Shown piece after piece: positions 46,271 to 57,744 of a stretch of 64,000 nucleotides of DNA. The position numbers and the translations under genes are program-made. Each line of letters opens with the position of its first letter. Position 1 is the first letter of the stretch. Below the pieces are notes generated by a model that was given only the letters and a program-made list of their open reading frames with translations, was not told the origin of the DNA and did not search any database. Origin of the DNA: Sphyrna mokarran (Eukaryota); contig JAGIQG010000005.1 of NCBI GenBank assembly GCA_024679065.1, positions 82,336,001 through 82,400,000 of the forward strand, read 5' to 3'.

Positions 46271-46580
46271 TCGGCATCTCTCACCCAACAAGCAGGCAAC
46301 GCTGTGCCCGTGCAAGGAGCAGCTGACACGGCACACCCCTCCTCTCCCCCCACAACAATCGCTGTCGCCTGCCACCGCCAACTGCATTCCACCCCCCACC
46401 TCCTCAACTCCACCCCACCCCAAACATTAGCCACCTTCGCCCCGCAGCGCCAACTCCGAGTTCAGAGCATGCCAACTTGGGTATGCGCTTGTGCCACAAC
46501 CGCCGCCTCCACCTCTTCTGCCACTAGCTCCAGCGAGAAAGCGGCGACACTCGCAGCGGCCGCGGAAATCCCCGGCACAG
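46258..46580 (+). other. osr1: Putative osr1 exon 1 (5' leader); start approximate
   Basis: GC-rich segment ending in CAG|GTAACC. Vertebrate OSR1 has an upstream first exon, and a matching acceptor (CTTTTGCTTTTACACCAAG|G) lies at 53508/53509. Confidence 0.55.
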
Positions 46581-52710: not shown

Positions 52711-53552
52711 ATCTACTCCTGTTGTAACGTTGCTGGGACTTGGTATAGGGACGGGGGCTGAGTGACTATTAATGTTATAAAAATTATATTTTTTCTGCCC
52801 TTGTACGTGACAAGTTCAGTGCCCTTTATACTTGCAAAATTATTATGTTCCTTTTATAAGACAGACGAGTTTTTTTAAGTACAATCCACACTCTATATCT
52901 CAGTAATTAAGGGACTTTCACTGTAACTTCATTGCAGTGTTAATGTAAGCCTAATTGTGACACTAATAAATGCACTTTAAACTTAAAACATTGGGAGAGA
53001 TCGAGTTATTCCCGCCAATTCTAAACAAGAAATGCATCATTCAATCTCATTGCGGAGAAACTTGCCCCAATCTTTCTAACTGTCGTCACGTTTATTAATA
53101 GCTCTCGTTAAGCTGAAAGTTGTACATTGATTAATTTGATCCAATTTTAAGGTCACAGCGAGCGGAGCATTTAGTTGCCTTCTACAGTTCTCCCACCAAG
53201 GGTTAATAAGCAATGTTGTAGGTGGCGGTGAGTTGAACCACTCTTTATTGGCACGGATGCTTATGCCGTGAGACATGGAAATGATAGCTCAGAAAGAAGG
53301 TACAGGTTTGTGTTTGGAAAATATGTTTACGCTTAATTAATACGACACTAGCTTGCTGAACTGTTGTATTGTGCACGAATGCCATATTCCCGAGGTACAT
53401 GTTTTTGAAGTGAAACTTCTCTTTGCCATATTTGAGAACCGGTTGAATTTTTGCTAAGAATGAACGTGGCGTCGTCACTCACTGCATACCTTTTGCTTTT
53501 ACACCAAGGTTTCTGCAAGTTGGCAAGAGCTCCTGCAACCCAAGTGAGCGCC

Positions 53553-54196
53553 ATGGGCAGTAAGACTATTCCGGCTCCAGTGCCTATCCATCCGTCGCTA
53601 CAGTTAGCAAACTATGCATTCCTCCAAGCTTCCAACGGCATCCCCACTCCTTCCGACCAGCTGCACAACCTCTACGGCTTCAGCACGCTCCACACGGTCC
53701 ATCTGCATCAGTGGACCCTGGGTTATCCTCCGATGCCTTTGCCCCGATCTTCCTTCTCCAAAGTACCCGCTGTTTCCGCACTGGTGGACACTCGCTTCCA
53801 GCTCCCCACAATCCCCATCTTCCCCCATGTTTTCCAGCCCAAACAAGAGTCCAGCGGCATTCCGAACAAGACGAGACCCAGGTTCGACTTCGCCAATTTG
53901 GCCATTGCGGCTACCCAGGAGGACCACCCTAAGCGCGGACAGATAGACGGACAGTGCTCTCCTTCAGCCATCGGTTCCCTGCTCGATGCCACCAAGTTGT
54001 CGCCGGAGAGGAAACCCACAAGGGGAAGACTGCCATCCAAAACCAAAAAAGAATTTGTCTGTAAATTCTGCGGGAGGCACTTTACCAAATCATACAATCT
54101 TTTAATACACGAACGGACCCACACCGACGAACGCCCCTACACGTGTGACATTTGTCATAAAGCATTTAGGAGGCAAGATCATCTTCGTGACCACAG
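53553..54196 (+). CDS. osr1: Odd-skipped related 1, first coding exon (N-terminus, ZF1 and most of ZF2)
   Basis: [18 protein letters not shown]...RFDFANLA...[60 protein letters not shown] closely matches vertebrate OSR1 (EFVC, versus EFIC in OSR2). Strong Kozak GCCATGG; phase-2 donor AG|GTAAGA. Confidence 0.97.
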
Positions 54197-54513
54197 GTAA
54201 GAGGATACTTCTTTACCTCCCAACCCTCTGTACTTACACACTTTGATCTCTTTCATTTCAACTGCGTTGCGTTAATGTTTGCTCATGACAGGATCTGGCT
54301 GTTTACAGTCTCGACTCTAACTGCAGGGAATCTGAATCAAATCCAGGAGAATGACAGTTGGTTCTCATGACTTCCAAAGAGTCGAGACTGATATTTAAAT
54401 CGTGCGAGAAGTTATTCGTGAAAACATTCAGATGAATGGCTTGCCTAGTGAGTTTATGATATTGGTTATAATGGTCCATAGCAACAGCGGCTAAGAAACT
54501 CGGTTGCGTTTGA

Positions 54514-54693
<180 letters not shown>

Positions 54694-55036
54694 ACATGAA
54701 ATCGGCAAATGGGACTCAAAAGTGGAGCATTGAGGAAAGCCGAGAATGCAGACAGACCTTCACATTTAGAAACAGCACAAAACTATATCCATTCCGCTGC
54801 TGTTTTTTTTTTCTGTTATTTTATTCCAATACAGTTTTTTTTTCTGCGGGATTCTGCTTTGGGGGAAGACCTGTGTCGTTTTCTAAGTCTGAGCAACAGC
54901 AAAACAAAAAAAAATCCATGGTTTCGGTAGATTGCCTTTTGACTGGAGGGCGGTTTGAACTGTTGTCACCGTCCCTGATGTCCTCCGCCGTGGACGTGGA
55001 GTTGGAAGATGATGTTCTGTCTTCTGTGTTTAATAG

Positions 55037-55187
55037 GCATCTTCGCAACCCGTGGCAAAATGTTTAATTAGAGGGACAACCTGAAAACTCAGCTCCTCAC
55101 TCACTGACAGGAAACCTCGCTACTGCCCCTCAGCGTGTCAAGCTTCTCCGGAGAAACGGTGACCTGAGGTGCCACAGCCTCACCCAC
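55037..55187 (+). pseudogene. Pseudo-exon: decayed zinc fingers 4 and 5 homologous to the OSR2 terminal exon, within the osr1 3' UTR
   Basis: Across three frames it reads TRGKMFN*RDNLKTQLLTH / TDRKPRYCP / QRVKLLRRNGDLRCHSLTH, versus recalled OSR2 [47 protein letters not shown]. It is preceded by the acceptor TTCTGTCTTCTGTGTTTAATAG. Confidence 0.88.
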
Positions 55188-55821
55188 CATCTCAGAAACA
55201 ACCCTGATCTCCAAAGCGCTGCAGCATGCGGATGGAGACTTTTAGCTGAGTTTATTAGGTCTGTTTTTTCCCCCCAAAACTTTAGAGTATGGGATGGAAT
55301 AATTACCAAATCGCAGCTAAAGACCAAAGAAAGAGAGAGAGAAGAAAATGAAGACTTTTGTGATATTTGAATGAATGAGGAAAATCTCTGACTGAGGATT
55401 GAGGGCAGGTTTCACCTCTTGTGTCTGGGGACTAGAAAGACATGAGTAATGTTACAGTCTGATCGGGAGCTGAGCCCCAACACTTCAGCTTCCTGAGGTG
55501 AAATTTTATCATGGCAAATTAAAAAAAAAGCGCATTAATAAACCGCGGCTAGATGGAAAACTGCACTCCAGCTTGTGAACTGCATCGCTTGAAATACTGC
55601 AGTGGCCTGAACTGAGTGCTAAACCAGAGTGGCAGATTGTCCGTTAAGAAACAAAAGCAGAACAAAGGACAAATACACAGTCATGCAATATAAAAACACT
55701 CGAAACTACATTCCAATCGGCGGGGGTTTTAAACAAATAGTTCTCTGTAAATGTTTTGGCACTTTAAGCTGTTTTTTTTAACTATTTCCATGTATCACTG
55801 GATTTCTAATCTTTTTAAACG

Positions 55822-55827
55822 AATAAA
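55822..55827 (+). terminator. Candidate osr1 polyadenylation signal (AATAAA)
   Basis: AATAAA after an AU-rich UTR-like stretch. Alternatives are at 55537-55542 and 55943-55948. Confidence 0.45.
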
Positions 55828-57744
55828 TTGCCATTTTTAGGCAGTGCGCAGACCATTCCTTTATTGCAATACAAATAAGTTTTCTTTTATTTGAGGCGAG
55901 AGCATGTTCCACTTCTATCTTCATCAGAGGGTCGAGCGATTTAATAAACGCATCAAATACGGCAAATATATTCACAAATCCAAACCTACCCTCTTTACAA
56001 AGAGACCCAATACGACATGTGGACCGCTTTCTGACATCTCCCTCACCCATTTCGCCTATCTTTATATGTACAAAACATGTAAAGATATTTATGGGTACTT
56101 TAAAATATCTCTTAGGCTTTATTGAAGGGTAATTGCTTAGGAGCTGGCCTTTTCTATGTGGGTTCGGCTCACTCGCTGAAGGGGGAAAATATTGTACTTC
56201 ACATGAACGCGTTTGTGTTCTCCCTACAACAAATTTCCGGTCACCGATTTGAACACTGGCTAGACTAGGTGGGTCGGTCCGAATGGCCGTGGAAAGATTA
56301 GGGCGAGGCACTAAAGTCGACACTTAGGAAAGAGCTTTTGAATTCTTTCCTCACATCCATAAATGTAGCTCACAAACAGGCTTTGAACACCGGCTAACTG
56401 GTACTGATCTGAGCTTCAGGAACCTGTAGTGCACATTTGAAAAAAATAATTGCCCCGTTGCTGCAATGTTTTGTACTTTTGTTCTTTAGCTTAGGTTTTA
56501 AAAGCAACTCCTGTCCAACTGTTCTTGTCTCCTTTCCATTCACGTTAAAACAAAACCATTTCCTTTTTTGTTTACTAGAGCAATTCAATGAAAGGAATCC
56601 AGGCGCGATGGATTATGTCTGTCGGAAATGTTTTGAAGTTATTTTCAATGGGAATTTATTTGGTTTCTATATAATGGTGACGATCACATTATCATTGCAA
56701 AGTTACTTTGCTGTTATAAATAAAAAAAAACAATTTTTAACCGCGTGCTCACATTGTAACATTTTGGATAAAGTGGAGTTTGTTCTTCGTTTGTACCTGC
56801 CCACTGCAGTGTCCGAGCGGGATCAATCTCCTCCGACAGGCAACTTCCCGGGAACCAGTTATCCGATTCTTGGGATCAGCGACAAGCCTACTCTGAAGCC
56901 TCCTGACACATTCACAAAAACCACACGAACAAACTATACAGGGTCCTGCACATTTGAAGAAAAAATTGTCCCCCAGTTGCTGCAATGTTTTATTTTGCAG
57001 AGCCTTTGCAGGAGCCCGGAATTATTTTCTTCTGCTCCAACTACTGGACTGCCATAATCAGCTTCGAACCAGTAGCTGGAGTGAAGGTTCCTTGAAGAGT
57101 CTGCGCTCAAAACTCTTGACTTGTCTGGAATTCTTATTTTTTGCACAGGTGTATGTTTCCAGCACATGCTATTTCTGTTTCAGATTTCCAGCATCCACAG
57201 AACTTTCTAAATTTACTATGTAGGTCTTTATTCATACTGTCCGGCTAGAAATCTAGTTCCAAGGCTCTGCAGAGAACACCTCCACTAATAAATCAATATT
57301 TAGAAAAGAATTAAGCACGGTTTTTGTACATTTAGACGACCTGCGGGTGTAGATTGAAAACCAAAGGAGGCGTGGGTATTCCTGTTAATTACAGTTGACA
57401 CGGCATTGCCGATGCCCTCTTACGAAACCTTTTGCAATCAAAGTGATGAGATTATATACTTTAGGGAACCTCGTGTCAGATCACCCCACAATCCAGTCGG
57501 CGCTGCCTCCGGATTTATGGTCGAATGTTAACGAACGTTACCACTGGTACCCAGAGCATGACCCACTTTGACATTAAAGTTGCAGCATAGACATACGCTT
57601 AGTTGAAGAGTCAAGGCTCTTGGGTGCAGGATTACAGATGATTGAAAAGATTAGTCAATTCATAAAGTGGAAATGTGGAAATTAGAGCGTAAATGCTAAA
57701 AGTATATGGGGAAAATAGTCCAGCATTTTGGCATAGTTTTTTTT

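Follow-up and report, generated by a model that had tools for sequence, protein, structure and literature searches.

The window analysed here is a 64,000-nucleotide stretch of Sphyrna mokarran DNA (GCA_024679065.1, JAGIQG010000005.1, 82,336,001–82,400,000, forward strand) containing osr1, a gene that regulates how kidneys and limbs develop. On sequence comparison the gene is the osr1 orthologue, with an N-terminal half and fingers 1–3 nearer OSR1 than OSR2; its exon 2 product is about 64% identical to OSR2, and the best match in the first protein search was sawshark OSR1, a five-finger protein 99% identical over exon 2. The 311-aa OSR1 differs at one residue from that of Mustelus asterias (P0144), which marks the source as a ground shark (Carcharhiniformes). 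The features of the locus are listed in Table 1.

Table 1 Features of the osr1 locus, in window coordinates
Feature	Position	Strand	Remarks
osr1 exon 1 coding part, predicted	46469..46580	+	upstream ATG; joined in frame to 53509, giving 311 aa
osr1 exon 2	53509..54196	+	MGSK start 53553; fingers 1-2; donor AG|GT at 54196
osr1 exon 3 to old splice donor	54558..54657	+	finger 3; donor CAG|GTAAAA
osr1 read-through into former intron 3	54658..54693	+	11-residue tail and stop, three-finger OSR1
osr1 former intron 3, 379 nt	54658..55036	+	retained in mRNA as tail and 3′ UTR
Zinc finger 4 remnant	55037..55104	+	frameshift-aware and DNA alignment
Linker and zinc finger 5 remnant	55105..55187	+	frameshift-aware alignment
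OSR1-specific C-terminal tail remnant of five-finger isoform	55188..55232	+	OSR2 is without this tail
Candidate poly(A) signals AATAAA	55537, 55822, 55943 (55537..55948)	+	spliced contigs extend beyond 55600

Intron 2 (361 nt, GT..AG) is removed in contigs from three sequencing runs (X2, X10 and X12). The main osr1 transcript keeps intron 3 and encodes three-finger OSR1, as seen in these spliced contigs, which represent the main isoform only. The first 36 bases of the retained intron supply the C-terminal tail and the stop codon (54691–54693; 259 aa from the MGSK start), and the 11-residue tail of OSR1 is a translated intron. The VKELK-type tail recurs in almost every OSR1 record across a range from shark to mammal. 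The intron 3 donor (54657|54658) falls in the same codon as that of the species’ own osr2, and the 3′ end of the former intron has a pyrimidine-rich acceptor (AG at 55035–55036) that aligns with the osr2 exon 4 acceptor. This osr2, the one further close locus in the genome, is on another contig, C1326, with an intact five-finger exon 4 (G000:C1326:9934243-9934416; L009 5243-5425) that keeps the inner AG for the B form, with a CATACAG acceptor there.

Read from the upstream ATG, exon 1 and the beginning of exon 2 together would add a 52-aa N-terminal extension ahead of MGSK. Extensions starting with MPT or MPR are also found in OSR1 models of ray, chimaera, lungfish, reedfish and sturgeon and are absent from the salamander models checked; judged from these models, the extension is possibly a second old OSR1 feature lost from most bony vertebrates. 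On the 3′ side of osr1, positions 56344–56460 and 56940–56990 are two alike stretches (GCACATTTGAA..AAAA..TTG..CCCC..TTGCTGCAATGTTTT), probably shark repeat pieces.

A disabled exon in the 3′ untranslated region

Because intron 3 is retained, a remnant of exon 4 lies in the 3′ untranslated region (UTR). Its lesions were mapped by frameshift-aware alignment to intact OSR1 and by DNA alignment to the species’ own osr2 exon 4. A 10-nt deletion after 55047 takes out the first Cys of finger 4, the second Cys of each finger is replaced by Arg (at 55051 in finger 4 and 55134 in finger 5), a TAG stop stands at 55069, and the first His of finger 4 has become Gln at 55090. The frame is further broken by a 2-nt deletion near 55103–55105 and a 1-nt insertion near 55127, and other changes include Cys>Gly at 55158, Arg>Cys at 55170 and Phe>Leu at 55146. 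Finger 4 is left with one of its four zinc ligands; finger 5 keeps three, including both His, with a frameshift between its Cys positions. Neither finger presents the C2H2 pattern (PF00096; Cys-x2-Cys...His-x3-His) in one open frame, and Pfam recognizes no family in 55131–55232 at E 0.1. The remnant is incapable of encoding fingers 4–5. Its stretch 55126–55190 resembles the OSR2B tail in a shifted frame (scores 38 and 32, reached by 0 of 200 shuffles), because that tail is the same exon read in that frame.

A first-pass annotation, made from the letters alone, had described the same ruin: its three translated pieces (55048–55104, 55103–55129 and 55131–55187) lie where it put them, and alignment to both references returned every lesion it listed. 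It gave the extent as 55037–55187, which is indeed exon remnant but too short, as the exon continues to 55232 and includes an OSR1-specific tail. TGG follows 55232, at the place where the sawshark, horn shark and basking shark models have their stop.

The remnant aligns to horn shark OSR1 with a score of 176 (maximum of 150 dinucleotide shuffles, 45) and to the species’ own OSR2 exon 4 with a score of 117 and 30 of 47 residues identical (shuffle maximum 43, again of 150 dinucleotide shuffles); in the DNA alignment with that osr2 exon, 104 of 158 columns are equal. When 55037–55240 was compared with the last 110 residues of each of 378 proteins, the best nine matches were all five-finger cartilaginous-fish OSR1, led by the basking shark (score 193, 42/62 residues identical). 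The OSR2 last exon, to which the first-pass annotation had likened the remnant, is thus a significant match, but intact shark OSR1 is closer. An unrelated zinc-finger retrocopy, which that annotation had named as a finding that would overturn its reading, does not match better, since six zinc-finger loci of the same genome score only 38–49. The remnant bears OSR1 marks in the Met of its MFN motif and in an NNP tail. Basking shark and catshark carry the same Ile>Arg change in the linker, consistent with descent, mackerel sharks and ground sharks being sister orders. The stretch is single copy in the genome, where a search with the intact OSR1 exon gave osr2 as the sole strong match and no other intact OSR1-type exon 4 among the matches listed.

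Independent contigs and relatives

Four runs (X2, X3, X10 and X12), picked from 23, were aligned to 54100–55600. On the ground of their spliced-out intron 2, X2, X10 and X12 were treated as RNA; X3, from a fourth organism, is unspliced. X2, from the same species in another study, covers 54555–55600 in one contig with no differing letters and no gaps. The lesions are therefore real, which answers the doubt about assembly error that the first-pass annotation had wished to see settled from reads, and the disabling mutations are genuine. X10 and X12, from two other organisms, have intron 2 spliced and run on through intron 3 and the remnant, so that the spliced contigs of three organisms span former intron 3 without a joint. 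A joint starting at 54657 is found in none of the four runs (three spliced contigs); contigs drop rare forms, and this again applies to the main isoform only.

Lesions could be ordered by comparison with these relatives, using 40 of 98 differences and 12 of 20 gaps; rates on this basis are rough, and common frameshifts are sure for X10 only. At 55069 the codon is CAG in each of the three relatives, and at 55090 it is CGC. The stop at 55069 is accordingly recent and seen in Sphyrna mokarran only, while the His ligand at 55090 was lost earlier. All 16 gap letters of X10 are outside the remnant exon, so X10 has the same three frameshifts, and X12 has a stop codon of its own at 55112.

Five-finger OSR1 models in other fishes

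Our OSR1 survey drew on four clusters of cartilaginous-fish proteins and covered 38 of their 45 members, representing 22 species. Seven of these species have five-finger OSR1 models among the members listed: Callorhinchus milii, Pristiophorus japonicus, Heterodontus francisci, Cetorhinus maximus, Rhincodon typus, Chiloscyllium punctatum and C. plagiosum. For four of the seven the VKELK form is listed as well. Pfam counts five finger stretches in chimaera, horn shark and basking shark OSR1, four in whale shark, and three in Mustelus and catshark. The intact five-finger proteins are database models, with no Logan source. The remnant therefore has an intact homologue at the orthologous place, which upholds the core of the first-pass reading, a vestige of the finger 4–5 exon of a five-finger osr1. 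Its first explanation for the good preservation, long retention of a five-finger Osr1 among cartilaginous fishes, some of which still have it intact, is borne out by the same models.

Compared with horn shark OSR1, fingers 4–5 differ at 1 of 54 residues in chimaera, 3 in sawshark and basking shark, 8–10 in carpet sharks and 15 in the catshark model. Chimaeras and sharks split about 400 million years ago. The single residue by which chimaera and horn shark differ suggests that the intact exons are under protein-level selection. The carpet shark proteins (P0125, P0127 and P0128) keep all eight ligands despite their 8–10 changes. Their reading frames continue beyond the stop codon of the saw, horn and basking shark models, and finger 5 of whale shark OSR1 fails the Pfam stretch count. 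These sequences pose the question of whether relaxed selection may be under way in carpet shark exon 4.

OSR1 models of Scyliorhinus canicula (‘low quality’) and Narcine enter exon 4 but are broken. The catshark model has Cys>Trp in finger 4 and Cys>Tyr in finger 5, unlike the lesions in Sphyrna in this protein-level comparison. The other 13 species, including white shark, zebra shark and most rays, have three-finger OSR1 models only, where an annotation gap is possible.

Among bony vertebrates, fingers 4–5 are found in none of the 129 OSR1 records listed of 493 cluster members, and no bony OSR1 is among the best 120 of 656 matches to the sawshark C-terminus. A search of 29 metagenome loci yielded two bony-vertebrate osr1 loci with DNA 3′ of finger 3 (L010 and L016); no remnant was detected in the respective 1357 and 1193 nt, where scores of 31 and 25 fall short of the shuffle maxima (38 and 42). 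Short OSR1-type exon 4 fragments numbered 0 true cases among the 120 short matches listed, and P0493, the single pattern match for such an exon, was ruled out by its unrelated tail.

Age of the exon and ancestral state

The remnant is identical to the species’ own osr2 exon 4 at 36/51, 42/50 and 21/49 first, second and third codon positions, and third positions of coding exon 3 are identical to osr2 at 15/33. Since its third positions are as diverged from osr2 as those of exon 3, the remnant dates from the gene duplication, and, as judged from its codon positions, the exon was long under coding constraint after parting from osr2. Both fingers occur, at an identical junction, in lamprey, hagfish and hemichordate proteins, so five fingers are the ancestral state. 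In a tree of 21 proteins, eight OSR1 rows (91/87) stand apart from seven OSR2 rows (94/94), with the OSR1 support below the starred level and shark orders not separated. The first-pass annotation had called the exon a direct fossil of a five-finger osr1 ancestor; a vestige it is, but one of late loss in a single shark lineage, and not of an exon dead since the duplication. In a further odd-skipped-type locus (L013), fingers 4–5 follow finger 3 without an intron between.

We conclude that 55037–55232 is very probably a pseudoexon, osr1’s own exon 4, which is dead in this lineage of ground sharks and a passive passenger of the 3′ UTR.

Drift and alternative explanations

If the dead exon had been retained for a new non-coding role, whether through RNA structure, through 3′ UTR sites for miRNAs or proteins, or as an enhancer, it should diverge more slowly than its surroundings. 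X12 differs from the remnant exon by at least 14/196 substitutions, from the retained intron by 15/343 and from the rest of the UTR by at most 35/711, with 2/139 in coding exon 3 among the differences listed. For any difference between exon and flanking UTR the Fisher P value is 0.17–0.22, and in this one species pair the exon is not slower. Its changes fall on the three codon positions as 6/4/3, with no third-position bias, and in 10 of the 12 codons that differ the residue changes or a stop results (both among the differences listed); divergence is thus neutral for one species pair and 40 of 98 differences. The predicted RNA fold is no better than shuffles (z-score −0.98), Rfam has no family in the window, and L010 and L016 hold no trace of the exon in the 1357 and 1193 nt covered. 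The exon is transcribed within the mRNA of three organisms, and no indel is listed in it in three relatives, with several in the flanking UTR, mostly in simple runs; a retained non-coding role nevertheless seems very unlikely. The second explanation of the first-pass annotation, non-coding constraint, is therefore not supported, and none is needed, since the remnant is well preserved because the loss was late.

A continued role in splicing is unlikely too, if slightly less so. Here the acceptor at 55036, or an AG at 55110, would still serve a minor three-finger isoform with another tail (15 or 18 residues), whose use would preserve the splice sites in the manner of OSR2B; splicing to 55036 would end the protein after 15 residues. 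Donor GT and acceptor AG with its pyrimidine tract do survive, past 55110 the reading frame yields an OSR2B-like tail because it is the same shifted frame, and OSR1 models of electric ray, whale shark, epaulette shark, sevengill shark and some songbirds exit the same donor. However, the three spliced contigs lack the joint, and the donor GT is also fixed by a Val codon in the conserved tail and would persist even without splicing. That the exon is a later import, by gene conversion from osr2 or as an inserted zinc-finger retrocopy, is extremely improbable. Intact OSR1 and OSR2 fingers 4–5 differ at only 2–3 of 54 residues in the slowest species, but the third positions are as diverged as those of exon 3, the acceptor is homologous in position and phase, osr2 sits on a different contig, scores with unrelated finger loci are low, and the OSR1-specific residues and tail are common to chimaera through Sphyrna. 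Neither the missing intron context of a processed retrocopy nor the low synonymous distance of a recent osr2 conversion is observed. We give practically no weight to a functional exon with lesions due to assembly error: two of the lesions are 1–2-nt indels typical of long-read assemblies, but the same-species run is identical, X10 has the same indels and three zinc ligands are changed by substitution.

The models that leave the finger-3 donor continue into short unrelated tails, and such short-tail OSR1 forms probably derive from transcripts. The tail of whale shark isoform X4 (CGILLW) maps to 54845 in the retained intron (window 54833–54862), where the AG at 54833–54834 is a possible cryptic acceptor. 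Songbird OSR1 isoform X2 models (P0288 and P0289) pass from the finger-3 donor to a 9-residue tail, so that the old donor is possibly still active in birds.

A model for the loss of exon 4

We propose that the osr gene before duplication encoded five fingers, with fingers 4–5 after the finger-3 exon, as seen in the lamprey, hagfish and hemichordate proteins and in the exon layout of the species’ own osr2. After duplication, osr1 would have kept exon 4. Splicing at its weak donor (CAG|GTAAAA) would give five fingers, as the annotated proteins of other species suggest, and reading through the same donor would give three fingers and the 11-residue tail seen in the spliced contigs. Species with an intact exon 4 would use the weak donor part of the time, for which the short-tail models that exit the same donor are indirect support, and the chimaera and several sharks would still keep the exon under protein-level selection, to go by their 1/54 difference. 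This lineage of ground sharks would have lost the long isoform after its split from mackerel sharks. Frameshifts would have come first, common to at least one relative, and the stop at 55069 recently, in this organism only. The dead exon would now drift at the UTR rate with no protein product, looking well kept because its loss was late.

Taken as a whole, we consider it somewhat more probable than not that in the first jawed vertebrates Osr1 and Osr2 each had a five- and a three-finger isoform; that chimaeras and several orders of sharks still splice five-finger Osr1 and use it as a transcription factor; that it was lost independently at least three times (bony vertebrates, rays and ground sharks) and drifts in carpet sharks; that living species show every stage in the loss of a DNA-binding module by a central regulator of development; and that the OSR1 tail is a translated intron. 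The present data mark three-finger OSR1 as a derived state, account for its conserved C-terminal tail by read-through into an intron and provide a datable case of repeated isoform loss following gene duplication. Shark developmental models are affected, as the exon 4 model of the small-spotted catshark is broken and bamboo sharks keep all eight ligands.

Comparison with known systems

OSR1 is described with three fingers and OSR2 with five in excerpts of PMC10492040, OSR1 with three in zebrafish, mouse and human in excerpts of PMC9687957, and Osr1/Osr2 redundancy in those of PMC9690401. In the portions covered, the literature treats finger number as a constant that separates OSR1, with three, from OSR2, with five or, through splicing, three. 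Titles and abstract openings gave no report of a five-finger OSR1 or a remnant, with subscription papers largely outside this scope; in the part covered of bioRxiv 10.1101/165837, considered as a candidate report, ‘five zinc finger’ means five factors, and PMC12999481 likewise has no bearing on the question.

The closest relatives of the remnant are the five-finger OSR1 models of cartilaginous fishes, among them Callorhinchus (XP_007898597.1), Heterodontus (XP_067873832.1) and Cetorhinus (XP_078397640.1), automatic annotation named merely ‘odd-skipped-related 1 isoform’. They contain the orthologous exon with the same finger-3 junction, fingers and tail; theirs is intact, whereas the Sphyrna exon has three frameshifts, a stop codon and missing ligands. 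The paralogue OSR2 has the same exon layout and, according to excerpts of PMC3042965, five- and three-finger isoforms (OSR2A and OSR2B), the latter through use of another acceptor within exon 4. In OSR1 the three-finger form results instead from donor read-through into intron 3, so the two genes use separate routes, and the CATACAG of the species’ own osr2 is not matched at that place in osr1. Bony-vertebrate three-finger OSR1 is the same protein as the shark’s, VKELK tail included (PMC9687957 and PMC10492040, as excerpted). In bony-vertebrate osr1 no fingers 4–5 appear in the 129 records listed and no remnant in two loci, whereas the Sphyrna remnant can still be read.

The kind of element is not new, as pseudoexons are known and intact five-finger proteins stand in public automatic annotation. 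Pseudoexons, or vestigial coding exons, in 3′ UTRs are former coding exons that were disabled and kept through lost splicing. Compared with such cases in general, osr1 exon 4 has intact, drifting and dead states in living relatives.
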